DNA of 27,221 bases from Phycisphaerae bacterium (GCA_041657685.1 JBBABK010000001.1:6227-33447); one strand, 5' to 3'; shown: positions 748 to 22,869, counted from the first letter of the stretch. Numbers and translations: made by a program. The notes: a model not told the origin generated them from the sequence alone.

Positions 748-1986
748 ATGGCTAAGAAAACTGTTGCGGATATCGATGTAAAGGGCAAGAAGATTTTGAT
801 GCGGTGCGATTTCAACGTGCCGCTGGATGATAAGCAAAATATCACGAGCGACGACCGGATAGTCAAGGCGCTGCCGACGATAAAAGCGGTGCTGAGCGGC
901 GGCGGAGCGCTGATTTTGATGAGCCATTTGGGCAGGCCCAAAGGCGAGCCGGACCCGAAATTCAGTCTGGAACCGGTGGCGAGACGGCTCAGCGAACGGC
1001 TCGGCAAAAATGTTATTTTCGCCAATGACTGCATCGGCGAAGACGTGAAGAAAAAAGTCGCGGCACTTGAAGCCGGCGACGTGATGCTGCTGGAGAACGT
1101 GCGATTCCATAAGGAAGAAACAATCAAAGACAAAGCGGCCAAGGAAGATGCGCAGCTTCGCGCGGCGAAAGATAATTTTGCGAAAGAGATTGCGGCGCTG
1201 GGTGACGTGTATGTGGATGACGCGTTCGGGACGGCTCATCGGGATAACGCGTCGATGTACACGGTGCCGATGATGATGGAAAGCAAGCCGAGGGTTATTG
1301 GGTTTTTGATTGAGAAGGAGTTGAAATTTCTCGGTGAGACGGTGAGCAACCCTGACAAACCTTTTGTGGCTATACTCGGCGGAGCGAAGGTGTCGGATAA
1401 AATCGGCGTGATTGAGAACCTGATGAACAAGGTCGATACGATTCTCATCGGCGGGGCGATGGCGTATACGTTCTTCAAGGCGCAGGGATTTAAAATCGGC
1501 AAGAGTTTATGCGAAGATGATTTTCTCGATAAGGCGACGGCGCTTTTGGAGCAGGCGAAAAAATTAGATTGCGAAATAGTGCTGCCGGAAGATTCGGTAG
1601 TCGCCAGGGAAATCAAACCCGGCGCCGAGCACAAGAACGTGCTGAAGGACATCGAGGACGACTGGCTGGGACTGGATATAGGGCCAAAGACGTGCAGGCT
1701 GTTCGCGGAGAAATTAGAAGGCGCAAAGACGATTGTGTGGAACGGGCCCATGGGCGTGTTCGAGACGCCCCCTTTCGATGAAGGGACAAAGGCAGTGGCA
1801 CGGGCGGTCGCGGCTGCGACGGACGCGGGGGCGAGAAGCGTAGTCGGCGGCGGCGACAGCGCCAGCGCGCTGAATAAATTAGGGCTGGCGGATAGAATCA
1901 GTCATATCTCGACCGGCGGCGGCGCGAGCCTGGAATTTCTCGAAGGCAAGAAATTCGTGTGCATCGAAATTCTCGATGAAAAATAG
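748..1986 (+). CDS. pgk: Phosphoglycerate kinase
   Basis: MRCDFNVP, SHLGRPKG, LLENVRF, DAFGTAHR, LGGAKVSDKI, WNGPMGVFE, GGGDS, HISTGGGASLEFLEG. ATG at 748 with GGAG at 737-740. Confidence 0.98.
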   Translation: MAKKTVADIDVKGKKILMRCDFNVPLDDKQNITSDDRIVKALPTIKAVLSGGGALILMSHLGRPKGEPDPKFSLEPVARRLSERLGKNVIFANDCIGEDVKKKVAALEAGDVMLLENVRFHKEETIKDKAAKEDAQLRAAKDNFAKEIAALGDVYVDDAFGTAHRDNASMYTVPMMMESKPRVIGFLIEKELKFLGETVSNPDKPFVAILGGAKVSDKIGVIENLMNKVDTILIGGAMAYTFFKAQGFKIGKSLCEDDFLDKATALLEQAKKLDCEIVLPEDSVVAREIKPGAEHKNVLKDIEDDWLGLDIGPKTCRLFAEKLEGAKTIVWNGPMGVFETPPFDEGTKAVARAVAAATDAGARSVVGGGDSASALNKLGLADRISHISTGGGASLEFLEGKKFVCIEILDEK

Positions 1987-2028
1987 TTGATAGTTAATAG
2001 TGAATAGTCGTTAGTGAGTAGTGAATAG
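1984..2028 (+). repeat. Degenerate heptamer tandem array (TAGTGAA)n, about 6.5 units
   Basis: tagttga tagttaa tagtgaa tagtcgt tagtgag tagtgaa tag. The first unit begins with the pgk stop codon. Confidence 0.9.
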
Positions 2029-2031
2029 CAG

Positions 2032-2058
2032 AGGGCCGGGCGAGCCGGCCCTTTTTTT
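2032..2058 (+). terminator. Rho-independent terminator after pgk
   Basis: AGGGCCGG-gcgag-CCGGCCCT stem followed by a T run. Confidence 0.85.
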
Positions 2059-2140
2059 GTTTTATAATGGAAATACGGCAGAGGGCGAGATAAAATTGGA
2101 AATTGAACAGGGATTCGAAAGCACAAATGTTTTCGAGCGG

Positions 2141-2211
2141 AACCCCCTAATAAATTAGGGGGCTAAATTAAACGGCAGAAGGTGACCCCCGCCTGTGCAG
2201 CGGGGGCTAAA
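2141..2211. repeat. Tandem pair of REP-like hairpins CCCCC-N-GGGGG-CTAAA
   Basis: CCCCCTAA-taaa-TTAGGGGG-CTAAA (stem 2143-2162) and CCCCCGC-ctgtgca-GCGGGGG-CTAAA (stem 2186-2206). Confidence 0.7.
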
Positions 2212-2232
2212 CCGAAATATGACGGGGTTGTT

Positions 2233-2913
2233 ATGAGTGGATTGAGATTGCCGAAGGCTGGGACGGTCGAAGTTGTGCCGTCGATACTGAGCGCGGATTT
2301 TGCGAAGCTGGCCGATGAGCTTGCGCAAGTGAAAGCCGCCGGGGTGAAGATGGTGCATCTCGACGTGATGGACGGGCACTTCGTGCCGAACATTACGATT
2401 GGGCCGCCGGTAATTGCCAAGCTGCGTCAGCACAGCGATTTGGTTTTCGACAGTCACCTGATGATAACTGCCCCGGAACTTTATGCCGAGCAGTTCGTCG
2501 AGGCGGGCGTGAATAATATAACGTTTCATATCGAGGCGGCGAAGGAGCCGGAGAAATTAATTGAGAATTTGCACAAGTGGGGATGCACGGCCGGGGTGAC
2601 GCTCAATCCGGATACGCCGGTCGAGGCGATAAGGAAAATTGCGCCGCTGTGCGATATGGTACTTGTTATGACGGTCGAGCCCGGTTTCGGTGCGCAGGAG
2701 TTTATGCCTGAGGCGGCGAAAAAGGTTATCGAGGTGCGAAAGATTGTGGGGCCTGATATTCGCGTGGAAGTTGACGGCGGGATTAATCCGGAGACTGTGC
2801 CGACGGTTATAAGATACGGGGCCGATACGCTGGTAGCGGGCAACGCGGTATTCGGCACGGGCGACCGTGCGGCGGCGATTGAGGCGATTCGCAAAGCAGC
2901 GGGGATTAGTTAA
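2233..2913 (+). CDS. rpe: Ribulose-phosphate 3-epimerase
   Basis: PSILSADF, HLDVMDGHFVPNIT.G, DSHLM, VLVMTVEPGFGAQ, EVDGGIN, LVAGNAVF. ATG 2233 is preferred over GTG 2182, which lies in a hairpin repeat. Confidence 0.96.
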   Translation: MSGLRLPKAGTVEVVPSILSADFAKLADELAQVKAAGVKMVHLDVMDGHFVPNITIGPPVIAKLRQHSDLVFDSHLMITAPELYAEQFVEAGVNNITFHIEAAKEPEKLIENLHKWGCTAGVTLNPDTPVEAIRKIAPLCDMVLVMTVEPGFGAQEFMPEAAKKVIEVRKIVGPDIRVEVDGGINPETVPTVIRYGADTLVAGNAVFGTGDRAAAIEAIRKAAGIS

Positions 2914-2941
2914 TAGTCATTAGTCGTTAGTGAATAGTGAA
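2907..2941 (+). repeat. Heptamer array (TAGTGAA-type), 5 units
   Basis: tagttaa tagtcat tagtcgt tagtgaa tagtgaa. The rpe stop TAA lies within unit 1. Confidence 0.9.
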
Positions 2942-2970
2942 TGGACGGGGGAGTGGTTTTTTGGTAGAAT
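2942..2970 (+). promoter_or_regulatory. Putative sigma-70 promoter for accD
   Basis: TGGACG-17 nt-TAGAAT between two heptamer arrays. Confidence 0.45.
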
Positions 2971-2978
2971 CCTTACGA

Positions 2979-3021
2979 TAGTGAATAGTCGTTAGTGAAT
3001 AGTGAATAGTATAGTGAATAG
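2979..3021 (+). repeat. Heptamer array (TAGTGAA-type), about 6 units
   Basis: tagtgaa tagtcgt tagtgaa tagtgaa tagta tagtgaa tag, ending 4 nt before the accD ATG. Confidence 0.9.
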
Positions 3022-3025
3022 CAGT

Positions 3026-3868
3026 ATGGGTAAATCGAAGCAGAAGTGGGATGGGTTCAGTATTAAGCCTCGCAGGGAGATGCCCGAGGGGCTGTGGGTT
3101 CGCTGTCCTGGCTGTGAGCATACGATTTATAAAAGCTCGGTCGAGAAGAATATGAACGTCTGTCCGCAGTGCAATCATCATTTTCGGCTTAGCGCGGACC
3201 TGCGGATTCAATATCTGGTCGATGAGGGGACATTCGAGGAAGAACTGGGAGAGATGCGGAGCACCGACCCGCTTGATTTCAAATTTCGCGAAACTTCATA
3301 TAAAGACCGGCTGGAAAACGAGGAACGAAAGAGCGGCTCTATTGAGGCGATAAAAATCGGCAAGGCGTTCATCAAGGGCCGAGGTGTGATATTGGCGGTG
3401 ATGGACCCGAATTTCCTGATGGGGTCGATGGGAGCGGTGGTCGGCGAAAAATTCTGCGCCGCGGCTGAAAAGGCCGCACAGGAAAATCTGCCGTTGGTTG
3501 CGATTATATGTTCGGGCGGGGCGAGGATGCACGAGTCGGTGATTGCGGTGCAGCAAATGGCAAAGACCAGCGCGGCCGTGGCCAGACTCGATGAGGCGGG
3601 CGGGCTTTACATCGCGGTGCTGACGGACCCGACGACCGGCGGAGTGACGGCGAGCTTTGCGATGCTCGGCGATGTCACCATCGCGGAGCCGGGCGCGCTG
3701 ATTGGTTTTACGGGCAGGCGGGTAATAGCCGAGACGATTAAAGTGGAGCTGCCGGAGGGATTTCAGACGGCCGAGTTTATGCTCGAACACGGATTTATAG
3801 ATATGATTGTGGAGCGGAAGAATTTGCGAAGCGAGATAGCGCGGCTGATTGACTACACGAGCAAATGA
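3026..3868 (+). CDS. accD: Acetyl-CoA carboxylase carboxyltransferase beta subunit
   Basis: Zinc finger LWVRCPGC...VCPQCNHHFR, GSMGAVVGEK, SGGARMHES, PTTGGVTASFAMLGD, AEPGALIGFTGRRVI, FQTAEFMLEHGFID. Confidence 0.97.
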   Translation: MGKSKQKWDGFSIKPRREMPEGLWVRCPGCEHTIYKSSVEKNMNVCPQCNHHFRLSADLRIQYLVDEGTFEEELGEMRSTDPLDFKFRETSYKDRLENEERKSGSIEAIKIGKAFIKGRGVILAVMDPNFLMGSMGAVVGEKFCAAAEKAAQENLPLVAIICSGGARMHESVIAVQQMAKTSAAVARLDEAGGLYIAVLTDPTTGGVTASFAMLGDVTIAEPGALIGFTGRRVIAETIKVELPEGFQTAEFMLEHGFIDMIVERKNLRSEIARLIDYTSK

Positions 3869-3919
3869 CGCTTGATGTCACCGGATATTAAAACACTAAG
3901 ACACAAAAACACCAAGTAA

Positions 3920-3968
3920 CCCCGTCACATCCCGATAAAAAACAATCGGGAATGATGACGGGGCTAAA
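3920..3968. repeat. Compound hairpin (REP-like; possible bidirectional terminator between accD and the phosphatase gene)
   Basis: CCCCGTCA-cat-CCCGAT-aaaaaaca-ATCGGG-aatga-TGACGGGG-CTAAA. Confidence 0.7.
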
Positions 3969-3987
3969 TATAGAGGGATTTCAAGTT

Positions 3988-5331
3988 TTAATCGAGAAGG
4001 GCGAATATTGTTTTGGCGATTATGGTGTTGTCGATGTAGGGGCCTCTTATGGGGTCGAGGTTCGATTCGGCGTTTTTGAAAAGCACTACACCCTGGCCTT
4101 TCGAATAAAACGGGACGAGCGAGTTCGTATGGTCGTGGCTGTTGAATTCCAATCCCGGCATTTTGCCCTGACCGAGGTTCGTAATTTCATTCCATTTTGG
4201 GCCGTCTGGTGTGTCGCCGGAGTTGGGGCCGGTGAGGTAGCCGCATTCGTGGTCTGCGGTGACAATCAGCAGCGTATCGCTCCACGAGCTTTTCGCATTG
4301 ACCCAGTTCATCACGGCTTCGACGGCTTTATTAAAATCGATTTGCTCTTCGAGCATTCTGCCGGGCTGATTTTTATGGCTTGCCCAATCGACGGCGCCGC
4401 CTTCAATCATCAGGAAAAATCCGTCGGGGTCATCGTCGAGGATGTTCAGCGCGGCTTTTGACATTTCCGCGAGCGTGGGGACGGAATCGATTAGCGGGAC
4501 TCCGTAAGGCTCGGCTAAAACATTTCCGGAGCGCCCCTGCTGGAGCGTCGGCGAAATTTGCGCTAAGCCGAGGACGCGTTTGGGCGTGTTGCCGTCGGCG
4601 AGAGCGATAAATTCATCGCGGGTTTGCACGAGCGTCCATGGGTCGGGCGTTCCGTCGGCATCGGCATCGGCATCGGCGCCGGCGGTACCGGCGACGATTA
4701 AATCCCATGTGGATTGGCCGCCGACGTAATTGAAATCGTTCGGCTCGGCTATGAGTTTGCCATCGGAGTTGTATAACGGATTGCACGCGCCCATTACGCA
4801 ATCAACCGCGGATTCGAGCAGCATTTGTTTTGCGATTTGTTCGTAGCTGTTGCGAGACTTATTATGTGCGACGAAGCCTGCGGGGGTCGAGTGGCTGATT
4901 GGGACGGTGGTTACGACGCCTGTGGATTTGCCGAGCTGTTCGCAGCGTTCGGTTATATTTTTTACCGGGGCTTTGTTTGGGTCAACGCCGAGATAACCGT
5001 TTTTGGTTTTGATGCCGGTGCTCATCGCGGTGGCCGCTGCGGCCGAGTCGGTATATCCTTGTTTTACATAACCGAAGGACGCCCAGGCGAGTTGCGGCGA
5101 GTATGAGCCTTTTGCGGGGAAGGTTGACATCGCGATACCGAGTGTGAAATCGGTATAGGGCGGGCTGACGGGTTGGCCTGACTGATAAATCGAGGCGGCG
5201 GCAATGTGATTAAAGCCCGAGCCGTCGCCAATCATAATTATTATATTTTTGGGTGCATCGGCTGCGGCGGCTGATGTGATGAAGAAACCAGCGATGAGTA
5301 AGCAGGCGAATTGTTTTGTGTATTTATTCAT
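3988..5331 (-). CDS. phoA: Alkaline phosphatase (PhoA family), secreted
   Basis: IIIMIGDG, TDSAAAATAMSTG (Ser nucleophile), HSTPAGF, FLMIEGGAVDWASH, IVTADHECG, HTNSLVP, and an N-terminal signal peptide. Confidence 0.92.
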   Translation of the reverse strand: MNKYTKQFACLLIAGFFITSAAAADAPKNIIIMIGDGSGFNHIAAASIYQSGQPVSPPYTDFTLGIAMSTFPAKGSYSPQLAWASFGYVKQGYTDSAAAATAMSTGIKTKNGYLGVDPNKAPVKNITERCEQLGKSTGVVTTVPISHSTPAGFVAHNKSRNSYEQIAKQMLLESAVDCVMGACNPLYNSDGKLIAEPNDFNYVGGQSTWDLIVAGTAGADADADADGTPDPWTLVQTRDEFIALADGNTPKRVLGLAQISPTLQQGRSGNVLAEPYGVPLIDSVPTLAEMSKAALNILDDDPDGFFLMIEGGAVDWASHKNQPGRMLEEQIDFNKAVEAVMNWVNAKSSWSDTLLIVTADHECGYLTGPNSGDTPDGPKWNEITNLGQGKMPGLEFNSHDHTNSLVPFYSKGQGVVLFKNAESNLDPIRGPYIDNTIIAKTIFALLD

Positions 5332-5451: not shown

Positions 5452-5928
5452 ATGAAATTAATTACGAGCTTGGCGGCGGGTATTATCCTTTGCATTATCT
5501 GCTGCGGGTGCGAAATCGAACAGGGGATAACCAAATTTAAACAACCGACCGCGAGTCTTAAAAACGTGCGACTCACACAGGCCGATGCCAACGACGTCAA
5601 GCTGGTGTTTGAGATTCAGGTCGATAATCCGTATTGCGTTTCATTGCCGCTGACGAACATCGATTACAGAATGACCGTCGGCAAAGCGATGCTGATTAGC
5701 GGCGGAGCCGAGGTCGATGCGAAGGTACTGCCGGGGCAAAGTATCGTAGTCGAACTGCCCGCCGATATATCACAGGACGAATTCATACAGACGTTTGGAA
5801 GTTTCAAACCCGGCGCGAAGATTGCGTACGAAGCCGACGTGGGCCTGTTGGTCGATACGCCTGTCATCGGCCCCGTCAGGATGCCGCTGGAAAAGACGGG
5901 AAGCATCGAATCACCCTCAAAAAAGTAA
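5452..5928 (+). CDS. LEA type 2 / WHy domain lipoprotein
   Basis: Hydrophobic N-terminus ending in a Cys (CCGC) lipobox-like site. VDNPY.VSLPLTNIDYRM..G..M..G and the V.LP pattern are typical of LEA14/WHy. Confidence 0.7.
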   Translation: MKLITSLAAGIILCIICCGCEIEQGITKFKQPTASLKNVRLTQADANDVKLVFEIQVDNPYCVSLPLTNIDYRMTVGKAMLISGGAEVDAKVLPGQSIVVELPADISQDEFIQTFGSFKPGAKIAYEADVGLLVDTPVIGPVRMPLEKTGSIESPSKK

Positions 5929-5932
5929 AAAC

Positions 5933-6046
5933 TCTAATCTCTAAACTCTAAATCCTAAATAATATCTAATATCGAAATTCAAATGTTCAAAACCGTTTTG
6001 AGCGTTTTGAAGTTCGTGCTTTGAATTTGTTTAGGATTTAGGATTT
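5933..6046. repeat. Inverted pair of degenerate heptamer arrays (AAATCCT/AATATCT type)
   Basis: Left arm tctaatc tctaaac tctaaat cctaaat aatatct aatatcg aaattca aatgttc. Right arm ttgaatt tgt ttaggat ttaggat tt. Centre caaaac-cg-ttttg. Confidence 0.8.
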
Positions 6047-6545
6047 CTTCGAGTTGGAGCATTTTGGATTTGGTGCGACTGCCGCCGGGTGCACTAAATT
6101 GGCCGATTGAGCCGTCGCTGCGGATGACCCTGTGGCAGGGGATAATCAACGGAAACGGATTGCGGGCTAAAACGCTGCCGACGGCACGAATCGCTTTTGG
6201 ATTGCCCGCTTTTAAAGCTAATTGAGCGTAAGTAATGGTTTGGCGGGGCTTTATCTTTCGGCAGGCGGTTAAAACCGATGCTGAAAACGGCGTCAAACCG
6301 CTCAAATCCAGTTTGACATCCGCAAAATCGTCATCGCAAGTGCCTTGGTAATAAGCCTTTATGCGTTTTTGCAGCGTCGGCATATAGCGGGGAGCATACT
6401 CGGCTGGTCCGAAGGCGGTCGAAAAAAGCCGTTTTAACCGGCCGCAATCGGCTATCGGCAGATGGGCAGCGATGAGTCGGTTATCAGTGCCGACAAGGCC
6501 GAACCAGCCCCAGGCGGTTTTGAAAACGGTGAATCGCAGGTTCAT
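5979..6545 (-). CDS. ogt: Methylated-DNA--protein-cysteine methyltransferase
   Basis: ITYAQLA...GNPKAIRAVG...RNPFPLIIPCHRVIRSDG.IG.F...GG...K..ML.LE, including the PCHR active site. Confidence 0.93.
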   Translation of the reverse strand: MNLRFTVFKTAWGWFGLVGTDNRLIAAHLPIADCGRLKRLFSTAFGPAEYAPRYMPTLQKRIKAYYQGTCDDDFADVKLDLSGLTPFSASVLTACRKIKPRQTITYAQLALKAGNPKAIRAVGSVLARNPFPLIIPCHRVIRSDGSIGQFSAPGGSRTKSKMLQLEEILNPKQIQSTNFKTLKTVLNI

Positions 6546-6654: not shown

Positions 6655-7725
6655 ATGACTATCCAGCGGCACAGGCAGCGAATTGACGCGATTGACAATG
6701 AGCTTGTCGGACTGCTCAACGAACGCGCGCAGGTGGTTATCGAAATCGGCAAGCTCAAGAACAAGAGCGGCACCGCGATTTATGCGCCCGACCGCGAGAA
6801 GGAAGTGTTCGAGAAGATAAAAGCCGTCAATCAGGGGCCGCTGCCTGATAAAACACTGCTTGCGATTTGGCGGGAACTGATGAGCGGTTCGTTCGCACTG
6901 GAAAGGCCTTTGCGAATCGGGTATCTCGGCCCGCAGGGGAGTTTCAGTCACAACGCGGCTATGCTGAAATTCGGACAGAGCGTCGAGTACGAATCGCTGA
7001 CGGATATACGAAGCATTTTCGACGAGGTGAGCAAGGGACATTGCGATTTGGGACTGGTTCCGATTGAGAACACGACCGGCGGCGGCGTCATCGAGACGCT
7101 GGATGCGTTCGTGGATACGGACGTGAAAATATGCGCGGAAGTTTTTATGTCGATACATCATAATCTTATGGCCAATTGCGAGCTTGAGGCGATTGATAGG
7201 ATTTATTCCAAGCCGGAAGTCTTCGCGCAGTGCCGTAACTGGCTAAGCGCTACGTTCAAGGAGGCCAAGACAATTGCGGTGGCATCGACGGCCAAGGCGG
7301 CGCAACTGGCATCGCAGGAGCAGAATGCCGCGGCTATTGGTTCAGCCATCGCGGCTGAGCTTTACGGATTGAAAGTCATTTGTGAAAATATCGAGGATAT
7401 TACAAATAACATCACGCGATTTTTCGCGATTAGCAAGGAAGACGCAAGGCCGACCGGTGAAGACAAGACGGCGATACTTTTCAGCACGGCCCATAAGGCG
7501 GGCGCGCTGGCTGACGTGCTGGACGTGTTCAAGCAGCACGAAATAAATCTTACGAATATCGAATCGAGGCCGAGCAGGAAGCGTGAATGGGAATATTATT
7601 TCTTTATGGATTTTCTCGGCCATCGGACGGATATGAACGTGATAAGGGGGCTGGAAGCTGCACGCGAGCATTGTTTGCAGCTTTCGATACTGGGCAGCTT
7701 CCCGCGCGCGAAGGAAACGCTGTAG
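6655..7725 (+). CDS. pheA: Bifunctional chorismate mutase / prephenate dehydratase (P-protein)
   Basis: N-terminal R.RIDAIDNELV.LLNERA chorismate mutase domain, YLGPQGSFSH, VPIENTT.G, ENIED...NITRF, and ACT domain INLTNIESRPS. Confidence 0.96.
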   Translation: MTIQRHRQRIDAIDNELVGLLNERAQVVIEIGKLKNKSGTAIYAPDREKEVFEKIKAVNQGPLPDKTLLAIWRELMSGSFALERPLRIGYLGPQGSFSHNAAMLKFGQSVEYESLTDIRSIFDEVSKGHCDLGLVPIENTTGGGVIETLDAFVDTDVKICAEVFMSIHHNLMANCELEAIDRIYSKPEVFAQCRNWLSATFKEAKTIAVASTAKAAQLASQEQNAAAIGSAIAAELYGLKVICENIEDITNNITRFFAISKEDARPTGEDKTAILFSTAHKAGALADVLDVFKQHEINLTNIESRPSRKREWEYYFFMDFLGHRTDMNVIRGLEAAREHCLQLSILGSFPRAKETL

Positions 7726-7735
7726 CATTGGTGAG

Positions 7736-7803
7736 TGGTTAATTAGTTAATTGGTGAGCGATATTATGTCAATTAACCAATTAACCAATTAACAAATTAA
7801 CAA
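7736..7803. repeat. Inverted octamer tandem arrays (GGTTAATT / CAATTAAC)
   Basis: tggttaattagttaattggt ... caattaac caattaac caattaac aaattaac aa between pheA and tpiA. Confidence 0.85.
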
Positions 7804-7817
7804 GATAGGAGTAAGTA

Positions 7818-9995: not shown

Positions 9996-9997
9996 TT

Positions 9998-10579: not shown

Positions 10580-10807
10580 ATGATTGAAGCACTAAAGAGC
10601 ACGGAAATAGTCAATAAGGTCGGCGGCAGGTTCAAACTTACCGCGCTGGTTCAGAGAAGGCTTCAGGAGTTGCTCAGCGGCAGCAGGCCTTTAATCGAGA
10701 ACACCGAGAATATGACGCAGATGGAAATCGTGGTGCAGGAAATCCTGCAGGACAAAATCACCATCGACGACCAGAGCGGCCTGATAGAAAATCAACCGAC
10801 CCACTAA
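10580..10807 (+). CDS. rpoZ: RNA polymerase omega subunit
   Basis: 75 aa, VGGRFKLTALVQRRLQEL..G, in the canonical gmk-rpoZ-coaBC context. Confidence 0.88.
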   Translation: MIEALKSTEIVNKVGGRFKLTALVQRRLQELLSGSRPLIENTENMTQMEIVVQEILQDKITIDDQSGLIENQPTH

Positions 10808-11367
10808 TGAGCGAACCAGACCGTCAATTCGAAGGCGTTAACGTGCTGCTGGGCGTCAGCGGCGGGGTGGCCGCCTATAAGGCGGTTGACCTTGCGAGCA
10901 GGCTGACGGCTATTGGTGCGTCCGTTAAAACGATTATGACGCAAAACGCCTGCGAGCTTGTCAGGCCCAGGAGCTTCGAAGCGGTTACGAGGTCGGAGGT
11001 TTTTACGAATATATGGTCGCTGCCTCAGGAATATAAAATCGGGCATATCAGCCTTGTCGAATGGGCGAATGTAATCGTCATTGCACCTGCGACCGCGAAT
11101 ATTATCGGTAAAATCGCCAACGGCATCTGCGACGATTTACTAAGTACGATGATGTGCGCCGCTCATAAAAAGGCGGTGCTTATCGCACCGGCGATGAACA
11201 ACAATATGTGGGACAATCCGGCGGTGCAGCGAAATGTAAAAACTATTCGCGAAATGAAATACGAAATGGTCGGCCCTGAAGAAGGAAGGCTCGCCTGCGG
11301 AACGAAGGCAGTCGGCAGGATGTCGGAGCCGCAGGATATCATCCGCAAAATCGCCGAGATGATTTAA
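10807..11367 (+). CDS. coaC: Phosphopantothenoylcysteine decarboxylase (flavoprotein half of CoaBC)
   Basis: LLGVSGGVAAYKA, HI.L..WA.VIVIAPATANIIGKIANGICDDLLST, PAMN.NMW, GRLACG..G.GRM.EP (AVGRMSEP). Confidence 0.92.
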   Translation: MSEPDRQFEGVNVLLGVSGGVAAYKAVDLASRLTAIGASVKTIMTQNACELVRPRSFEAVTRSEVFTNIWSLPQEYKIGHISLVEWANVIVIAPATANIIGKIANGICDDLLSTMMCAAHKKAVLIAPAMNNNMWDNPAVQRNVKTIREMKYEMVGPEEGRLACGTKAVGRMSEPQDIIRKIAEMI

Positions 11368-11393: not shown

Positions 11394-12017
11394 GTGAGCA
11401 AATCGAAAAAGAAACATTTCCTTATCACAGCTGGCGGAACACGGGAATATATCGACCCGGTGCGTTTTATATCAAACGCCAGCAGCGGCAGGATGGGCTA
11501 TGCGCTTGCCGATGCGGCTAAGGCGGCGGGACATAAAGTGACGCTGATTAGCGCATCGGATTTGCAGCCTGGGGTCGGGATTGATTTTGTCGCGGTCGAA
11601 TCGGCGGCAGATATGTTCGAAGCGGTGACGAAATTTTTTGCGAAATGTGACTGCCTGATAATGGCGGCGGCAGTGTCGGATTATGCGCCTGTGGGGGCAG
11701 GCAAGGTAAAAATCAAAAAAGGCAAAACGCAGCTTCTTTTAAAGCTAAAACCCACCATTGATATTTTGAAATGGGCGGGCAAACATAAAAAAGCCGGGCA
11801 GTTCGTCGTCGGTTTTGCGCTTGAAGATAAAGAATTGCGAAAAAACGCGGAGAAGAAATTAACCGGCAAGAATCTCGATATGATTATCGCCAATGAGCCT
11901 GATTCGATATCGGCCGAGCGAACCACGGTACATATCAAGACGCCGAACAGCAAATGGCTCAAGATTCCATCAGCCTCGAAAACAGATATAGCCCGTCAAA
12001 TTATCAGGCGAATATAA
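11394..12017 (+). CDS. coaB: Phosphopantothenate--cysteine ligase (CoaB half)
   Basis: LITAGGTREYIDPVRFISNASSGRMG, MAAAVSDY, VGFALE, K...KNLDMIIAN. GTG start with GAGG upstream. Confidence 0.92.
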   Translation: MSKSKKKHFLITAGGTREYIDPVRFISNASSGRMGYALADAAKAAGHKVTLISASDLQPGVGIDFVAVESAADMFEAVTKFFAKCDCLIMAAAVSDYAPVGAGKVKIKKGKTQLLLKLKPTIDILKWAGKHKKAGQFVVGFALEDKELRKNAEKKLTGKNLDMIIANEPDSISAERTTVHIKTPNSKWLKIPSASKTDIARQIIRRI

Positions 12018-16070: not shown

Positions 16071-17081
16071 ATGGCCATTTCCAAAAGTGAGCGTCCTGCA
16101 TATCTGAAATGGTATCTAATCGTTGTTTATGTCGCGGTGCCGGTAATTTCGGCATTGTTTTTTTTAACCGATATCTTCGAAACCAACGGAACCGGCGGGG
16201 TCCCGCAAATTGTCTGGGCAGCGGGCGGCATCGTTTTACTGCTGACGGTTATCGTTACCCTGTGGAAGATAAATGAGTTGACCGGGGTGCTCGGCAAAAA
16301 CAGCGAAAGAATCGAAATCCTGACGGAACAGCAGGACAAAAATCGCAGGATGTTCGAACAAATGTCGCAGCAGATGTGCATCAGCGACACGGCCCGGTCG
16401 ATACTTTTCGGGGAAAACGACGCAGCGGCCATACGACAGGCCGTCCTGAATCTTATGCAGAATCAGCAGCAGGCCCAGGCGATGAAAATCATCGATAGGC
16501 TCCAAAGCACGGACCGTTATCACGGACTGGCCGGACAATTACGGGCAGAAGTCGAAACTTTTCAGTCGCCGGAGGAACGCGAAAAAGAAAATCAGATTAT
16601 CGATAACATCGAGACGCTCTTCAAGCACTACAAGTGGCCCAAGGCATCGACTGAGATTGAAAACTTTATCGAGGCGTTCCCTCATTCTCAGCGAGCAAAG
16701 CAGCTTCGGCAGACGCTCGTTGACAGAAAAGAGGAACGTAAAAAAGATTTGCTGAAACTTTGGGACGAGGCGGTCAGGAAACAGGCGACCGAGCGCAGTC
16801 TGGAAATACTGCGGGAACTGGATATGTACCTTACGCCCAATGAAGGACTTGCGCTGCAGGAAGCGGCGCGGGACGTATTTCGAAACAAGCTGCACAATAT
16901 GGGCGTTCAGTTTTCACTTGCTGTGTCGGAAAAACAGTGGAAAACCGCGCTGGATACGGGCCGGCAGATTGTAAGTGAATTTCCGAACAGCAAAATGGCA
17001 CAGGAGATACGTGAGCGGCTCGACGTGCTCGAACAGCGCGTAAACGAAATGCAGCAGCCGATGGGTAAAATCGAAAGCTGA
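16071..17081 (+). CDS. Membrane-anchored hypothetical protein (2 N-terminal TM helices, helical/TPR-like C-terminus)
   Basis: Two hydrophobic stretches followed by charged amphipathic helices (A...I..FI..FP.S..A; FPNSKMAQEI). RBS AAAGGA 6 nt before ATG 16071. Confidence 0.8.
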   Translation: MAISKSERPAYLKWYLIVVYVAVPVISALFFLTDIFETNGTGGVPQIVWAAGGIVLLLTVIVTLWKINELTGVLGKNSERIEILTEQQDKNRRMFEQMSQQMCISDTARSILFGENDAAAIRQAVLNLMQNQQQAQAMKIIDRLQSTDRYHGLAGQLRAEVETFQSPEEREKENQIIDNIETLFKHYKWPKASTEIENFIEAFPHSQRAKQLRQTLVDRKEERKKDLLKLWDEAVRKQATERSLEILRELDMYLTPNEGLALQEAARDVFRNKLHNMGVQFSLAVSEKQWKTALDTGRQIVSEFPNSKMAQEIRERLDVLEQRVNEMQQPMGKIES

Positions 17082-17113
17082 GATTGCTTCGTCGTTTCAC
17101 TCCTGGCAATGAC
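17080..17113. repeat. Short palindromic repeat unit (GAGATTGCTTCG...GCAATGAC type)
   Basis: gagattgcttcgtcgtttcactcctggcaatgac with ATTGC/GCAAT arms. It resembles a widespread intergenic REP-like unit (from recollection, not searched). Confidence 0.55.
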
Positions 17114-17133
17114 ATACGAGATATATTAAAAAC

Positions 17134-17167: not shown

Positions 17168-17189
17168 GGCGTTACTCAGATCCTACAAA

Positions 17190-18770: not shown

Positions 18771-18867
18771 AGCCGAGTTACTCCGTTAAAGCTGGGACAC
18801 TGACGCAAGAGTTTAGTTTATCCCGGCGCGTTTGACAACAATTAACACGGCAAAAACGGACAACTAT

Positions 18868-19530: not shown

Positions 19531-21303
19531 TTATGTTTTTACAGCGACCTTGTGCGCCGCTTTGATTCCGTCGGGCAAGTTCTGTTCAGGATAACGCCTC
19601 TGCATCGCCGCGGCTACAAGTCCGACGAACATCGGCTGCGGATTCAACGGCCGGCTCGTCAGGCACGGATGCGCCTGGGTCGCCATAAAAAACGGATGTT
19701 CGGGCAGTTCGAGGATTTGCATAATCGGCTGGTCGGGCGCCTTGCCGCTGAATACCAGCCCCTTGCCTTCGAGCTTTTTAATATATCGCGGGTCGACTTC
19801 ATAGCGGTGGCGAAATCTCATTCGCACGCTTTCGGTTTTGCCGAACAATTCCCACGCGCGGGTATCGCGCCTGACTTCGATGTCCCTGCCGCCCAGACGC
19901 ATATTGCCGCCGAGTCCTTCGATTTTTTTCTGTTCGGGCAGGATGTCAATCACAGGCTCTTTGCAGTCCCGCTCAATCTCGGTGCTGTTCGCCCCGGCTA
20001 ACTGGCATACGTTACGCGCGAATTCGATTACCGCCATCTGGAAGCCGTAACAAATTCCTAAATATGGTAATCCGTTTTCGCGAGCGTATTTGACGCAGGC
20101 GATTTTGCCTTCGGTACCGCGCGTGCCGAAGCCGCCGGGCACGATAATCCCGTCAACTTCTTTTAGCCGCTCTGCGACATTTGAGTCATTGACATCGGTC
20201 GTATCAATCCATTTTATATCGACGTCACTGCCCAGCGCGATGCCGGCGTGTTCGAGCGAATTTATAATCGACGCGTAACTGTCGCGTACGGAAATGTATT
20301 TCCCCGTTATGCCGATGGTGGTCTTGTATTTTAGCGAATCCATCTTATCGGTGAAATCGCACCATCGCGCCCAGGCCTTTCGCTCGTTGCGAAGATTGAT
20401 GCGGTCTTCGATTTTCAATAATCGCAGCACCTCGAAATCAATTCCGCGTTCCCGCAGCATCGCGGGTATCATATAAATACTGGCAGAATCCGGCACCGAC
20501 ATAACGCGTTCGAGCGGCACGTTGCTGTATATGCTGATTTTCTGGCGAACTTTTTCATCGACCGTTCTCGCCGCGCGACACCCAATCATATGCGGCTGAA
20601 CGCCGAGCTGCATCAACTGCTTAATTCCCAACTGCGCCGCTTTTGATTTCTGCTCGCCGAGCGTCTTTGGCTCCATAATGTATGTAAGCGCGACAAAACA
20701 CGCGCTGTCCGGGCCTTCCTCGTACGCAAGCTCGCGCATCGCCTCGATGAAATACGCGTTTTCCAAATCGCCGACCGTGCCGCCGATTTCCACGAACACG
20801 ATATCGGCATCGGTCTCCATCGCGAGGTTTCGCAGCTTGAGTTTCACTTCGCCGGTGACGTGCGGAATCATCTGCACGTCCCTGCCGAGATAATCGCCGT
20901 GCCGCTCCTTGCTGAGCACGGAATTGAAAATCTGGCCGCTGGTCGCGAAATTAGATTTGCTCAGGTTCTGGTCGAGCATCCGCTCGTACGTCCCCAGGTC
21001 CATATCGGTTTCCATCCCGTCGTCGAGCACGAACACCTCGCCGTGGCGGAATGGATTGAGCGTACCGGAATCTATATTAAGATAGCCTTCGAGTTTTATC
21101 GGCGCGACCTTCAGTCCCTTGTCCTGCATCAGCTTGGCAAGGCACGACGAGAAGATGCCCTTGCCCAGTCCGCTCATCACGGTGCCGAGCACGAAGACGT
21201 ATTTCGTCCTGCCTTTGCGATAGCCTTTCGGTATCGGCGAGAAAAATTCGCTTTCCGTACTCGTATCACTTACCGCCGCCAGCAATTCATTATCTTTGCT
21301 CAT
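19531..21303 (-). CDS. pyrG: CTP synthase
   Basis: SGLGKGI, NIDSGTLNPFRHGEVFVLDDG.ETD.DLG.YER, GRDVQMIPHVT, EIGGTVGD.E, KTK-like KSKAAQ, VPGGFG.RG, GIC.G.Q, GGNMRLG, RHRYEV. Confidence 0.96.
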   Translation of the reverse strand: MSKDNELLAAVSDTSTESEFFSPIPKGYRKGRTKYVFVLGTVMSGLGKGIFSSCLAKLMQDKGLKVAPIKLEGYLNIDSGTLNPFRHGEVFVLDDGMETDMDLGTYERMLDQNLSKSNFATSGQIFNSVLSKERHGDYLGRDVQMIPHVTGEVKLKLRNLAMETDADIVFVEIGGTVGDLENAYFIEAMRELAYEEGPDSACFVALTYIMEPKTLGEQKSKAAQLGIKQLMQLGVQPHMIGCRAARTVDEKVRQKISIYSNVPLERVMSVPDSASIYMIPAMLRERGIDFEVLRLLKIEDRINLRNERKAWARWCDFTDKMDSLKYKTTIGITGKYISVRDSYASIINSLEHAGIALGSDVDIKWIDTTDVNDSNVAERLKEVDGIIVPGGFGTRGTEGKIACVKYARENGLPYLGICYGFQMAVIEFARNVCQLAGANSTEIERDCKEPVIDILPEQKKIEGLGGNMRLGGRDIEVRRDTRAWELFGKTESVRMRFRHRYEVDPRYIKKLEGKGLVFSGKAPDQPIMQILELPEHPFFMATQAHPCLTSRPLNPQPMFVGLVAAAMQRRYPEQNLPDGIKAAHKVAVKT

Positions 21304-21327
21304 ATTTTCTTTCTCTACTTATTAAAA

Positions 21328-21426
21328 CCACGAATGAACACGAATTAACACAAATCAATTACAAATTCGAAATTCTAAACCCTAAATCCTAAACAAATTA
21401 AAAATCCGAATATCTAATTTCCAAAC
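21328..21426 (+). repeat. Stacked decamer and heptamer tandem arrays
   Basis: cacgaatgaa cacgaattaa cacaaatcaa (period 10), then aaattcg aaattct aaaccct aaatcct ... aatatct aatttcc (period 7). Confidence 0.8.
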
Positions 21427-21431
21427 ATTTC

Positions 21432-22047
21432 GCCACAGAGTTTTTTATTTATTAAAAGCCACGGAGAACACACTTGTCCCGATGTCTTCTATCGGGAGAG
21501 CTCGCAGAGTAACAAGTCGAGATTTTCTTAACTTTCTAAACCTCTATGGCAAATTCCTCATTCATGCTGAAATCCAGTTTATCATTAGCTTCCTCACTAC
21601 TTTTAATCTTGGACATGATGAGCTTTTCGTCCTTGACATCTTCTTTCAGCTTATCAAGGTCATCTTTAACTCGACTTTGAAAATATTGCTCAAATTCTTT
21701 TCTGGAAAACGCATACAGTCTTTTCATTATCTCTTCGTTGTTTTCTCCAAGTTTTTCCCAACAGGAAACTATTCTATCAAGCACTGAAACCTGAACAGGA
21801 ATTCTGATAACCTCCTCATAAACAGAACATTCTAATACAAATCTAGCCCAATGCTGCGGCTTCTCCTCATAAGGCCGAAGGCCTATGTGTTCAATAAGCT
21901 TGAACTGGTACCTCATACGGTTCCTTTCTGCGGTTCTTCTACCAATTTTTACTTGTGTTTCGGGTTTCATATAGACACCTTCGAGATTTAATTTATTTTT
22001 CTCTGTGCTCTCTGTGGCTATAACATAAATTATTATTTCTCTGTGGC
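21432..22047. mobile_element. Putative non-autonomous cassette bounded by nested GCCAC(A/G)GAG inverted repeats
   Basis: Outer IR GCCACAGAG (21432-21440) / CTCTGTGGC (22039-22047). Inner IR GCCACGGAGAACACA (21458-21472) / CTCTGTGCTCTCTGTGGC (22001-22018). These enclose an AT-rich orphan ORF. No transposase is present. Confidence 0.5.
21536..21970 (-). CDS. Orphan hypothetical protein (144 aa; alternative start 21916), visibly AT-rich
   Basis: Uninterrupted 144-codon ORF, A/T-ending codons unlike neighbours, acidic/basic C-terminus. No motif recognised. Confidence 0.6.
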   Translation of the reverse strand: MKPETQVKIGRRTAERNRMRYQFKLIEHIGLRPYEEKPQHWARFVLECSVYEEVIRIPVQVSVLDRIVSCWEKLGENNEEIMKRLYAFSRKEFEQYFQSRVKDDLDKLKEDVKDEKLIMSKIKSSEEANDKLDFSMNEEFAIEV

Positions 22048-22869
22048 CAATTTATACCGCTTTACAAATTCCGCGTATTGCTCGGCTGTGTCGATACCGT
22101 CGCAGGTGTGTTTTACTTTGGCGACCAATATCGAATAGCCGGTTTCGATTGCGCGCAATTGTTCCAGTTTTTCTATTTGTTCCAATCTGCCCTGCGGCAT
22201 CTTTGTAAACTCTAAAAGGAAATCCCTGCGGTAAGCATAGATGCCGAGATGTCTCAAATACTGATTCACCGCGCCGATTCCATTGGCCTGCCTGTCATAC
22301 GGAATCACCGAACGTGAAAAATAGATTGCCCTTTGGGCATTGTCGCTCGTCGCTCGACGCTCGTCGCTCGTAACGACTTTTACGATATTCGGATTTGCGA
22401 TTTGGTCGGCTGATTCGAACCCGGCGGCGAGTGTCGCCATCGGGGCGTCGGGATTATCAATTAGAAGCTGCGCGACGGTGTCGATATTGGCGGGGTCGAT
22501 TTCCGGCTCATCGGCCTGCAAATTGACAACAATATCATCAGGGTTCAGGGTGCAGGGTGCAGGGTTCAGTTTTTCGTTTTTCCTGTCCCCTGTCCGCTGT
22601 CCGCTGTACGCTGTTTCTATTGCCTCGGCGATTCGGTCGGTGCCGCTGGCGCAGTCGGGGCTTGTCATTATGCATCGTGCGCCGAAGCTCGCCGCGGCCT
22701 GGGCCACTCTTTCGTGGTCGGTCGCGATAAGAACGATATCGGGCAATTTGGCTTTCAATGCCTGTTCGTATGTGTGCTGGATGAGGTATTGGCCGGTATC
22801 AGCGGCGAGAACTTTATTGGCGAATCTCGTGGATTCGTAACGGGCGGGTATGCAAACAATCACTTTCAC
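22033..22869 (-). CDS. kdsB: 3-deoxy-manno-octulosonate cytidylyltransferase (CMP-KDO synthetase) with two repeat-derived insertions
   Basis: IPARYESTRF..K.L, IATD, SGTDRIAE, VNLQADEP, IVKVV, AIYFSRS.IP, HLGIYAYR, LE..EKLEQLRAIE.G, GIDT. GTG 22869 has AGGAG upstream. Confidence 0.95.
   Translation of the reverse strand: MKVIVCIPARYESTRFANKVLAADTGQYLIQHTYEQALKAKLPDIVLIATDHERVAQAAASFGARCIMTSPDCASGTDRIAEAIETAYSGQRTGDRKNEKLNPAPCTLNPDDIVVNLQADEPEIDPANIDTVAQLLIDNPDAPMATLAAGFESADQIANPNIVKVVTSDERRATSDNAQRAIYFSRSVIPYDRQANGIGAVNQYLRHLGIYAYRRDFLLEFTKMPQGRLEQIEKLEQLRAIETGYSILVAKVKHTCDGIDTAEQYAEFVKRYKLATEK

Follow-up and report, generated by a model that had tools for sequence, protein, structure and literature searches.

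The window analysed here, a 27,221-nt stretch of DNA from a member of the Sedimentisphaerales (Planctomycetota), carries pgk, rpe, accD, phoA, an LEA_2 gene, ogt, pheA, tpiA, pyrG and kdsB, with short runs of 7-10-base repeats between these genes and inside kdsB (Table 1). The runs are real as judged by Tandem Repeats Finder (TRF), which recovered arrays at or beside all nine places where the initial annotation had claimed at least nine degenerate tandem arrays of period 7-10. TRF reported 10 period-7 rows in the window compared with about 0.6 expected from order-3 Markov shuffles, and 168 period-7 arrays in the whole genome compared with about 47 per 2.14 Mb in such shuffles. When only intergenic DNA was considered, there were 103 real arrays versus 1-5 (about 3) shuffled ones at period 7, 35 versus 3-10 at period 8, 53 versus 6-8 at period 9, 33 versus 6-13 at period 10 and 29 versus 1-3 at period 14. 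The period-7 excess was also present at loci of related genomes (95 versus 7 and 21 versus 4) and was not found at the tpiA loci of other phyla used as controls (9 versus 8). Since the arrays are about 30 times as frequent as in shuffles, they are not the product of plain chance slippage, an outcome that would have counted against a common origin. Independent metagenome contigs match 2850-3792 and 21416-22315 without any difference and the arrays are therefore not assembly artefacts; no clear polymorphism in unit number was seen in these contigs. The arrays are also placed non-randomly with regard to stop codons, as 9% of those in the genome start exactly at one versus 1.8% with random placement. 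The stop codons of pgk, rpe, LEA_2, pheA, ogt and kdsB all contact arrays or arms, those of ogt and kdsB lying inside arms, in agreement with the earlier remark that several arrays begin at or include a stop codon.

Table 1 Repeat features of the window. Positions are counted from its first nucleotide.
Position	Strand	Feature	Evidence or remark
1982-2028	+	Solo TAGTNNN heptamer array, ~6.7 units	TRF period 7, 6.7 copies
2143-2210	+	Two REP-like hairpins (2143-2166, 2186-2210), type stem...GGGGCTAAA	Separate repeat family
2905-2942	+	TAGTNNN heptamer array containing rpe stop codon (TAA 2911-2913)	TRF
2943-2977	+	Conserved core between two direct arrays, with TGGTAGAAT motif	Conserved in same-genus G003, flanking arrays not
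2978-3021	+	TAGTNNN heptamer array in accD leader	TRF; ends 5 nt before likely start codon ATG 3027
3890-3912	+	Weak 8-mer array, 2.9 units, marginal	TRF period 8, score 32
3920-3967	+	REP-like hairpin between convergent accD and phoA, ending in GGGGCTAAA	At least 12 copies, 88-95% identity
5929-6046	.	Gene-less paired module, arms AAAYYCT (5929-5958) and TTTAGGA (6024-6046) enclosing inner hairpin	TRF and RNA fold
7728-7803	+	Gene-less paired module, 8-mer arms GGTTAATT and CAATTAAC, core ~13 nt	TRF, RNA fold
21329-21355	-	10-mer array, GTGTTCATTC-type on coding strand, upstream of pyrG	TRF period 10
21363-21426	-	Solo heptamer arm, TTTAGGA and TTTCGAA units	Homology; TRF 21375-21394 period 7
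21430-21530	-	Downstream arms of 9-mer cassette, CTCTGTGGC-type units; small nested hairpin ~21475-21499	
21536-21970	-	Cargo gene, 144-aa orphan ORF (P0002), co-oriented with kdsB and pyrG	Flanking inverted repeats
21990-22050	-	Upstream arms of 9-mer cassette, GCCACAGAG units, inner and outer	
22342-22371	-	In-frame heptamer array, GAGCGAC x 4.3 on coding strand, KdsB loop B	TRF
22538-22614	-	In-frame two-arm module (ACAGCGG-type arm, A-rich core, CTGMACC-type arm), KdsB loop A	TRF 22538-22569 and 22583-22614

The first three arrays share TAGTNNN units (TAGTGAA, TAGTCGT and TAGTTAA, none of which is TAACTGA). The pgk stop codon (TAG, 1984-1986) forms the first unit of the array at 1982, which is followed directly by an intrinsic terminator hairpin (2029-2062); only the terminator is structured in RNA folding. 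Relatives have different units or none at the pgk-rpe junction. Folding gives no RNA structure for the array in the accD leader (z +1.2), and both rpe-accD arrays are missing at the orthologous place in the same-genus genome G003, which carries TGAATGAAT there. The core between them contains a motif resembling an extended -10 element, from which we infer that it is probably the accD promoter. The arrays at 1982, 2905 and 2978, like most of the 18 copies in the genome, are sense-oriented, contain stops in all three frames and overlap an upstream stop codon or end just before a start codon. Such features could point to cis-regulatory platforms under selection, either as sites for a single-strand RNA-binding protein of the cold-shock or S1 type, with about one protein per 7 nt, or as translation insulators with all-frame stops at junctions. 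The TAACTGA repeats have been described in just such terms and CspB has been reported to bind heptamer repeats with one protein per unit (PMC4679880); in addition, the TAGTNNN arrays lack structure and several genera retain certain arm families ahead of pyrG. However, congeners and many relatives lack arrays at the corresponding junctions, so that the arrays are dispensable, stops in all three frames are equally common on both strands when all co-directional intergenic arrays are counted (20 versus 20), and the units are too diverse for one binding protein. A regulatory role, which would also leave the inverted pairs and the link to cargo genes described below unexplained, is thus improbable. 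The same TAGTNNN family constitutes the upstream arm of four-helix-bundle genes in relatives (L190, L198, L200 and L201).

Two gene-less modules with paired arms lie between accD and tpiA. The module at 5929-6046 begins directly after the LEA_2 stop codon (TAA, 5926-5928) and provides the tail and the stop codon (5979-5981) of ogt. TRF detected its arrays at 5929-5952 and 6030-6046, and the fold of 5925-6055 has a z of -6.9, with none of 200 shuffles folding as well. Its arm family recurs in 8 contigs, including as an arm of a four-helix-bundle cassette on contig C86. The second module fills the pheA-tpiA spacer, with the pheA stop codon (TAG, 7723-7725) abutting the array. Here TRF detected period 8 at 7770-7801, and a degenerate left arm (7728-7762) is visible by eye and in the fold of 7722-7810 (z -3.2). 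This module is present in one same-genus genome (L112) and absent from another (L113), where the spacer is 9 nt; its arms recur with different loops on three other contigs. No convincing family was found in the genome for the marginal array at 3890-3912.

The two elements in kdsB are in frame. At loop B, inserts with differing units are found in 47 of 81 orthologues, and the solved enzyme 1GQ9 has 8 fewer residues there than KdsB. At loop A, where KdsB has 26 residues versus 4 in 1GQ9, homologous inserts of one arm (+8 aa) or two arms (+16-30 aa) occur in 25 of the 81; the fold of 22530-22620 has a z of -4.1. The earlier description of inverted arms around a short core thus applies to three modules, for which the folds predict hairpins, but not to 2905-3021, where the repeats are direct. 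Arrays fixed in position among relatives would have spoken against mobility. The kdsB arrays are fixed in position, though their presence and units turn over, and the intergenic arrays at rpe-accD and pheA-tpiA are not fixed, being absent from a same-genus genome. The kdsB inserts bring to mind the Rickettsia palindromic elements, which Ogata et al. in 2000 are said to have described as in-frame palindromic inserts in protein genes. In both cases a hairpin-forming repeat lies in frame in a housekeeping gene and is translated as an extra surface peptide. In contrast to the Rickettsia elements, those in kdsB are heptamer-periodic, recur with varied units and lengths at two loops shared by dozens of orthologues, and belong to a family that also carries genes.

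Such genes are found at the kdsB-pyrG junction. The 10-mer family next to pyrG has at least 6 copies in the genome and also precedes pyrG in three relatives. The adjacent heptamer arm (21363-21426) shares homology with the C86 arm and, in three genera, with the DNA downstream of a four-helix-bundle gene located at this junction; the latter homology directly shows it to be the remnant of an arm that follows such a gene. Between 10 and 26 contigs in four metagenomes break at 21363. Adjoining this arm is a filled cassette (21430-22050) in which the orphan ORF lies between 9-mer arms. The initial annotation had suggested that the sites could be empty or remnant cassette loci, and this holds for the remnant arm but not for the filled cassette. 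Among 2791 gene spans compared for flanking inverted repeats, the ORF falls within the top 0.5%; it has no significant match in Pfam or NCBIfam. The outer GCCACAGAG unit encodes the last KdsB residues and the stop codon (22033-22035). The same two-tier arm occurs at this place in three relatives with different cargo, and in many relatives the cargo here lies between arms of the CTCTGTGGC-type family. Of the relatives, 22 have an empty junction and 46 a filled one, the cargo being GxxExxY, four-helix-bundle, FRG, ankyrin, GIY-YIG, zinc-ribbon or orphan genes. Every cargo ORF found is co-oriented, and many of the cassettes are bracketed by CACAGAGAA...TTCTCTGTG. Whole modules and their cargo are thus gained, lost and swapped at orthologous sites.

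This junction has similarities to integron cassettes and the minimal mobile elements of Neisseria, where small genes that lack promoters and whose functions are varied or unknown likewise replace one another at a fixed site between conserved genes; tandem cassettes separated by repeat sites, another shared feature, occur here in three relatives (L013, L015 and L048). Unlike in those systems, each cassette has periodic arms at both of its ends, and the sites, instead of being collected in one array, are dispersed among housekeeping operons. No integron integrase was seen beside the kdsB-pyrG site, and the only two tyrosine-recombinase genes found in the genome are on other contigs.

The association of periodic arms with small genes extends beyond the window. 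In this genome, inverted periodic arms enclose every one of the ten four-helix-bundle (TIGR02436) and GxxExxY (TIGR04256) genes, and genes of these two families make up 6 of the top 9 among the 2791 gene spans ranked by flanking inverted repeat. Seven or eight genes are of the PF05635/TIGR02436 type, all with arms and all outside the window. In a sample of 40 four-helix-bundle genes from 20 related genera, 26 have inverted arms when 2 were expected, significance being set above the 95% level of mismatched-flank controls; 23 of the 26 are of period 7, and no significant arms were found for the other 14 sampled genes. A flanking of both gene families by periodic arms, which the initial annotation had put forward, was thus borne out, and a lack of association with variable cargo, which would have refuted a mobile origin, can be dismissed on these counts and on the diversity of genes at kdsB-pyrG. 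The elements described here are located between protein genes, beside tRNA or SRP RNA genes, or in frame within kdsB. Where a cassette of this genome has a gene upstream of its cargo, that gene is co-oriented in 11 of 12 cases.

The unit sequences add to this association. Arm units of the sampled genes include TAGT-, CGTCGCT- and ACTCGAT-types, the families of gene-less arrays in the window and in congeners, and four-helix-bundle or GxxExxY genes have arms of the window families TAGTNNN, GTCGCTC and TTTAGGA. Among free heptamer arrays, 107 of 160 match a resident cassette arm with at most one mismatch (45 expected). Arm unit and cargo protein co-diverge, as protein similarity is correlated with arm-unit distance (Spearman -0.38, with none of 2000 permutations as low); shared descent alone could be a sufficient cause of this correlation. 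It had been proposed that units differ between sites and that structure or period, not sequence, is constrained. The units do differ, but each belongs to a family recurring elsewhere in the genome; since these families co-vary with the cargo protein, the arms are not constrained by period alone.

These data also bear on replication slippage, by which long simple-sequence repeats (SSRs) would arise in place, heptamers being slippage-prone, and small genes would merely land or survive there. In many bacteria, long SSRs are most often heptanucleotide repeats, for which slippage of the polymerase has been proposed as the cause (Mrazek 2007, cited in PMC4679880). Solo arrays here start at a gene's own stop codon, G003 has a possible seed at the orthologous spot, unit number varies among orthologues and target-site duplications are not seen. 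Slippage does not explain, however, why the same unit families are found at many loci and as cassette arms in other genera, why arms occur as complementary pairs, why so many of the sampled cargo genes have arms, why whole two-arm modules are present or absent between congeners, or why the excess is lineage-specific and missing from control loci of other phyla. We regard it as quite unlikely to be the general explanation. The window TAGT arrays are solo, direct and unstructured, a caveat on any cassette reading, and slippage acting on a seed like that in G003 could have produced them where they stand.

We propose, with a probability of roughly 0.7, that small hairpin cassettes occur throughout the order Sedimentisphaerales and that the arrays represent their arms, either in pairs or orphaned. 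The evidence supports most of the 7-10-base runs here being arms of gene cassettes that come and go between and inside housekeeping genes. In a full cassette, one or two small genes without a promoter, which have the orientation of the host operon and code for a four-helix-bundle, GxxExxY, orphan or other small protein, would be framed by a short unit repeated in two inverted runs; this unit is mostly of 7 nt but also of 8, 9 or 10 nt in other families. The window would then hold one full cassette (21430-22050), three gene-less pairs of arms (5929-6046, 7728-7803 and, in frame in kdsB, 22538-22614) and orphaned single arms at 1982-2028, 2905-2942, 2978-3021, 21363-21426 and 22342-22371. The inference of a shared generative or mobilising mechanism is therefore supported with amendments, as none of the three refuting outcomes holds across the sites tested. 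As for movement of the DNA, our guess is that recombination or gene conversion between dispersed look-alike arms may act together with unit slippage; alternatively, a trans-acting factor, maybe the cargo protein itself, may be responsible. No target-site duplication or other signature of transposition was seen at boundaries between filled and empty sites. MITEs were considered and ruled against by the lack of clear target-site duplications and by the unrelated loops of modules that share arms.

Among the closest known systems are the ORF-bearing intervening sequences (IVSs) of 23S rRNA in Coxiella burnetii and Leptospira. The Coxiella IVS has a gene of the same four-helix-bundle family between inverted repeats that form a 28-bp stem and is cleaved by RNase III in vitro (PMC4990558). 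As with those IVSs, S23p/PF05635/TIGR02436 cargo occurs in this genome and its relatives, the gene lies within terminal inverted repeats forming a long stem, and the element would be carried in an RNA transcribed from a host promoter, is distributed sporadically in a way that looks horizontal, and is found repeatedly at conserved sites of insertion (PMC4990558). Terminal inverted repeats with a stable stem are found here (fold z -3.2 to -6.9, with inverted repeats around cargo genes); no PF05635/TIGR02436 gene is in the window, its sole cargo being the orphan. In contrast to the IVSs, none of the 40 sampled four-helix-bundle cassettes of relatives is in rRNA and the window yielded no rRNA, the arms consist of units of 7-10 nt in tandem, one cargo can take the place of another, and gene-less and single-arm derivatives abound. 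By analogy, we tentatively suggest, at somewhat less than even odds and without RNA data for this organism, that the two arms base-pair with each other once transcribed with the operon and that RNase III cleaves them. An insert would then be harmless to its flanking genes and could persist between co-transcribed essential genes, and within kdsB only stop-free, in-frame and weakly paired versions would survive. RNase III genes were found in all 12 relatives searched; none was found in the 84%-complete assembly of this genome.

The cassette reading ties the long-unexplained heptamer repeats of bacteria to a family of small four-helix-bundle genes. The STRR of cyanobacteria, the LSSR of Mrazek 2007 and the TAACTGA repeats of Beggiatoaceae, Cyanobacteria and Bacteroidetes (PMC4679880) are also tandem heptamers and mostly intergenic, overlap upstream stops or end just before starts, contain many stops when read forward and are patchily distributed over the phylogeny, with no known mechanism. 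The arrays here likewise satisfy the definition of LSSR and STRR as tandem heptamers above compositional expectation. They differ in having many unit families rather than one, in their many inverted pairs and in their lineage, the Planctomycetota. The statistical tie to small cargo genes is absent from the TAACTGA paper, in which the term "four helix" appears nowhere (PMC4679880), and no paper describing such heptamer-armed cassettes was found in the literature. The evidence leaves open a further reading, which we consider rather unlikely, that four-helix-bundle and perhaps GxxExxY proteins are sequence-specific partners of their own arms, reading nucleic acid in 7-nt steps and driving the spread or upkeep of look-alike arrays as RAYTs do with REPINs. 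Bearing on it are the presence of each gene's own unit in its flanks, the co-divergence of unit and protein and the over-representation of gene-less arrays with resident units. If true, the heptamer SSRs of many bacteria would be footprints of the four-helix-bundle protein family.

Hairpins of a different kind are stacked with the arrays, as had been noted; they are not part of the same modules but belong to a REP-like family, with 85 GGGGCTAAA hairpins in the genome. No candidate mobiliser is encoded in the window, as stated before; the genome has four Y1_Tnp (RAYT-like) genes, each flanked by CCCC...GGGGCTAAA hairpins and none by heptamer arrays. Periodic modules resemble the REP/REPIN-RAYT system in their dispersed intergenic hairpins, in having a gene between inverted copies of its own repeat and in the far greater number of gene-less doublets than gene-bearing copies, and the paired arms without genes look like REPIN doublets in outline. 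They differ from it in that the genes between the arms are four-helix-bundle, GxxExxY or orphan genes with no known transposase among them, and in that the arms are tandem arrays of variable length instead of one fixed palindrome. A Y1 gene between inverted copies of a dispersed repeat, the hallmark of REP/RAYT, is found for the GGGGCTAAA hairpins only. That the Y1 transposases mobilise the periodic modules is thus very hard to credit. The CCCC...GGGGCTAAA hairpins appear to be an ordinary REP-like family with its RAYT-like genes elsewhere in the genome, and mobilisation by these genes would account only for the three REP-like hairpins of the window.

Tandem Repeats Finder returned rows at or beside all nine of the array sites named in the initial annotation, with sequences that match its description, and ten period-7 rows in the window. 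The large ORFs of the window are all housekeeping genes (ndk, pgk, rpe, accD, phoA, ogt, pheA, tpiA, secG, yicC, gmk, rpoZ, coaC, coaB, pyrG, kdsB, queA and ilvD), and no tRNA genes or Rfam matches were found in it. Its source is contig C1 of a metagenome-assembled genome (318 contigs, 2.14 Mb, 48.6% G+C, 84% completeness) which, judged from relatives of its KdsB and TpiA, is a member of the Sedimentisphaerales (Phycisphaerae, Planctomycetota). The whole genome holds 168 arrays of period 7 and 58 of period 14, compared with about 47 and about 9 in order-3 Markov shuffles. When only the 226 kb of intergenic DNA was analyzed and shuffled by its own order-2 model, the real and shuffled counts were 103 versus 1-5 for period 7, 29 versus 1-3 for period 14, 53 versus 6-8 for period 9, 35 versus 3-10 for period 8 and 33 versus 6-13 for period 10. 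These counts indicate that seven is the dominant period and that the 8-, 9- and 10-nt families are smaller. At least one array is present in 176 of 1285 spacers. The excess is common to loci of related genomes (95 real versus 7 shuffled, and 21 versus 4) and does not show in the tpiA loci of other phyla (9 versus 8). Since contigs of independent metagenomes matched 2850-3792 and 21416-22315 without a difference, the arrays are not assembly artefacts. The earlier suggestion of a constraint on structure or period rather than on sequence needs correction, as unit sequences are not free and each falls into a family represented elsewhere in the genome; no family placement was achieved for the window array at 3890-3912.

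The genome holds 7-8 four-helix-bundle (TIGR02436) and 3 GxxExxY (TIGR04256) genes. The idea that such genes have periodic arms beside them proved correct, every one of them lying between inverted arms with a unit of its own. When 2791 genes and gene pairs were ranked by the inverted repeat in their flanks, with annotation ignored, six of the top nine spans were TIGR02436 or TIGR04256 genes. This gene-flank scan, like a ranked list of pairs, worked better than a strict-score hunt for an inverted partner of every array, which gave only about 16 pairs. An independent sample of 40 four-helix-bundle genes was drawn from 20 other genera of the family. Their flanking inverted repeats exceeded the 95% level of mismatched-flank controls in 26 cases (2 expected), 23 of them with period 7. 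The arms include TAGT-, CGTCGCT- and ACTCGAT-type units; the first two families also occur without a gene in the window (1982-3021 and 22342-22371), and the third does so in congeners. Among 23 cassettes, a greater arm-unit distance went with a lower protein similarity (Spearman -0.38; 0 of 2000 permutations as low), which means that gene and arms are inherited or moved together. This covariation of arm unit with cargo protein is among the things that the window adds. Of the 160 free heptamer arrays in this genome, 107 are within one mismatch of a resident cassette arm (45 expected). The cassettes are also polar: where the cargo has an upstream neighbor, as in 12 cassettes of this genome, that gene has the same orientation in 11. 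None of the 40 sampled genes lies inside rRNA and 4 adjoin tRNA or SRP RNA genes. At L190, L216, L217 and L227, loci from related genomes, four-helix-bundle cassettes are located between two tRNA genes or right after a tRNA or SRP RNA gene on the same strand; these positions indicate that not only mRNAs but also stable-RNA transcripts contain inserted cassettes. At four other such loci (L189, L196, L198 and L199), the contigs stop about 35-140 nt past the four-helix-bundle gene. It seems to be the arms that interrupt short-read assembly; for metagenomes this means contigs that end at arms, and probably also cassette counts that are too low in metagenome-assembled genomes.

Among long simple repeats, tandem heptamers are the most frequent in many bacterial genomes, and we know of no accepted explanation for them. 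The small four-helix-bundle 'IVS proteins' form a very widespread family that, to our knowledge, has no known function. The window and its relatives tie these two puzzles together, in that hairpin cassettes carrying the 'IVS protein' genes have the repeats as their arms. With this connection, the role of IVS-type proteins and the accumulation of heptamers both become testable with defined substrates. The cassettes occupy housekeeping operons and have fixed hot spots at which their cargo is exchanged. They leave behind arms without a gene, and some of these arms are translated, giving an essential enzyme additional loops. For annotation, this means that repeat arms provide pgk, rpe, ogt and kdsB with their C-terminal tails and stop codons. 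Our literature search found IVS reported only within rRNA (PMC4990558) and no paper connecting TIGR02436 or TIGR04256 genes with periodic arms; heptamer repeats have been described without a mechanism (PMC4679880). Plain slippage (Mrazek 2007), as far as its citation in PMC4679880 conveys it, accounts for the growth and shrinkage of arrays and may account for the origin of some solo TAGT arrays, but it leaves unexplained the pairing of arms, the dispersed unit families and the tie to cargo.

The gene-flank scan also flagged a 144-aa orphan, the window ORF 21536-21970 at the kdsB-pyrG junction. The ORF is enclosed by two-tier arms based on GCCACAGAG, which gives the window one filled cassette; the final KdsB codons, with the stop, come from the outer GCCACAGAG unit. 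A comparison of filled and empty sites in relatives had been proposed, and both kinds were found: of 68 relatives with both genes, 22 have a kdsB-pyrG gap of 9-51 nt and 46 have one of 200-2900 nt. The latter gaps contain GxxExxY genes (3), four-helix-bundle genes (3), genes for FRG, ankyrin, GIY-YIG and zinc-ribbon proteins and many orphans, all co-oriented with the operon. Many of these cassettes have CACAGAGAA runs upstream and complementary runs downstream, tandem cassettes are separated by direct CACAGAGAA runs, and a single CCACAGAG motif is kept at several empty sites. In close-pair comparisons, the filled loci L023, L031 and L041 have the same two-tier arm as the window with different cargo, and the native KdsB tail is replaced by the arm. 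The guess that gene-less sites could be remnants is borne out at 21363-21426: this stretch is homologous to sequence 3' of a four-helix-bundle gene at the same junction in three genera, and the window has a gene-less remnant there. The kdsB-pyrG junction is an order-wide hot spot with interchangeable cargo, a finding new from this window. Four DNA metagenomes yielded only short contigs against the window; one low-depth contig joining 21509 to 22051 may represent a cargo-less allele. Neither this contig nor the few further short-sided joints seen within modules are strong enough to be counted.

Both arrays inside kdsB are in frame and without stop codons. Relative to the solved KdsB structure 1GQ9, site A (22538-22614) encodes 26 residues instead of 4 directly before the DIxxNxQxDEP strand, and site B (22342-22371) adds 8 residues in a turn. 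An insert is present at site A in 25 of 81 KdsB orthologues: about 12 have 4 to 8 additional residues, 10 of these being a single 24-nt arm, and 13 consist of two arms and an A-rich core. Site B is occupied in 47 of the 81, with units that vary between orthologues. The self-identity of the inserted DNA is 0.66 at lag 7 versus 0.19-0.29 at other lags. On a KdsB FastTree of about 200 columns, with the insert columns left out, there were at least 21 changes of insert state at site A and at least 29 at site B; these are near shuffled-label values, and a tree of this size overstates changes. The turnover of inserts is clearly high. The insert sites are positionally fixed whereas intergenic arrays are not, which we read as inserts surviving only where the protein tolerates them. 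In-frame arm inserts in two loops of an essential enzyme, across dozens of orthologues, are likewise new from this window.

The pair of arrays at 2905-3021 consists of direct rather than inverted repeats, and the core between them is conserved and contains a TGGTAGAAT motif resembling a promoter -10 element. In the same-genus genome G003, the rpe-accD junction keeps this promoter-like core and lacks both arrays. Synteny with G003, the nearest good genome, is limited to rpe-accD-phoA, and most junctions were therefore compared at the family level. The longest accD ORF begins at GTG 3002 within the repeat array, and its alignment with G003 favors ATG 3027 as the real start. At pgk-rpe, the window has TAGT units, another congener ACTCGAT-type units, one genus TAGT units that occupy the entire spacer, another a 9-mer inverted pair and four genomes no array. 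The paired 8-mer module at pheA-tpiA is present in one congener and missing from another with a 9-nt spacer; further genomes have a single arm in one case and a different pair in another, and the pheA-tpiA arms recur around unrelated loops on three other contigs of the same genome. Arrays touching stop codons, another earlier claim, are borne out in the window, and genome-wide 9% of arrays start exactly on a stop codon versus 1.8% with random placement. This anchoring is a real yet modest bias, partly explained by short spacers. A general function as sense-strand insulators with stops in all frames was rejected (20 sense versus 20 antisense). The TAGT arrays are unstructured (RNA fold z +1.2) and in form match the kind of regulatory platform, bound by single-strand RNA-binding proteins, that has been proposed for TAACTGA repeats (PMC4679880). 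However, the arrays are dispensable between congeners and have three-frame stop content without overall strand bias, neither of which favors such a platform. We identify the solo TAGT arrays as a cassette-arm family, also new from the window.

Paired arms are predicted to form hairpins (RNA fold z -3.2, -6.9 and -4.1). The closest known relative of these cassettes is the Coxiella IVS, where the same gene family lies between inverted repeats forming a 28-bp stem that RNase III cleaves in vitro, with mapped ends inside the stem (PMC4990558). A search for RNA runs turned up none; we propose, at odds of somewhat better than one in three and without RNA data, that arms may likewise pair in the host transcript and be cut. 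Such cutting would free the cargo RNA from that of the operon and would allow an insert to sit between co-transcribed genes without harm. All 12 relatives searched have RNase III genes; none was found in this incomplete (84%) assembly. As for movement of the DNA, no target-site duplications were seen at filled-versus-empty boundaries, and no transposase tied to the periodic arms was found, the Y1 genes of the genome being flanked by GGGGCTAAA hairpins. The simplest account is recombination between look-alike arms together with unit slippage, and the data leave room for the cargo proteins to take part. The 84%-complete genome yielded no reverse transcriptase gene, which argues against a DGR-like or telomerase-like origin here.

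The hairpin modules at 2143-2166, 2186-2210 and 3920-3967 are present as first described, but they are not part of the periodic-array family; they belong to a separate family of 85 ending in GGGGCTAAA. These hairpins flank at least three of the four Y1-transposase genes of the genome, in what looks like an ordinary REP-type (REP/RAYT) system in a Planctomycetota genome. A REP/RAYT system as the explanation of the repeats covers only the GGGGCTAAA hairpins. Three copies of a 41-nt hairpin repeat with regular 174-nt spacing are located at the start of contig C172 (14-52, 188-226 and 362-400); a longer unit repeated in tandem may underlie them.

Locations of Y1-transposase genes in the genome holding the window (G000; C, contig) and of kdsB-pyrG cargo in loci of related genomes (L)
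Feature	Location	Size
RAYT-like Y1 transposase gene	G000 C45:7838-8119	~155 aa
RAYT-like Y1 transposase gene	G000 C117:5277-5543	~155 aa
RAYT-like Y1 transposase gene	G000 C179:2968-3192	~155 aa
RAYT-like Y1 transposase gene	G000 C207:673-966	~155 aa
GIY-YIG nuclease-domain cargo protein, kdsB-pyrG	L029:2247-2624	
FRG-domain cargo protein, kdsB-pyrG	L005:3904-4734	
ankyrin-repeat cargo protein, kdsB-pyrG	L003:3991-5169	392 aa

Outside the listed arrays, 17078-17114 is another multi-copy element, with a 4-40-fold excess of depth and many loose contig ends in two of four metagenomes. The usually fused coaBC is represented by separate ORFs for the flavoprotein (CoaC) half at 10807-11367 and the DFP (CoaB) half at 11394-12017, with 26 nt between them; either a natural split or a frameshift could account for the separation. 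The interior of phoA contains a (TCGGCA) run of 3.8 units at 4655-4677, and the absence of one 6-nt unit from a groundwater metagenome contig is an in-frame slippage polymorphism.
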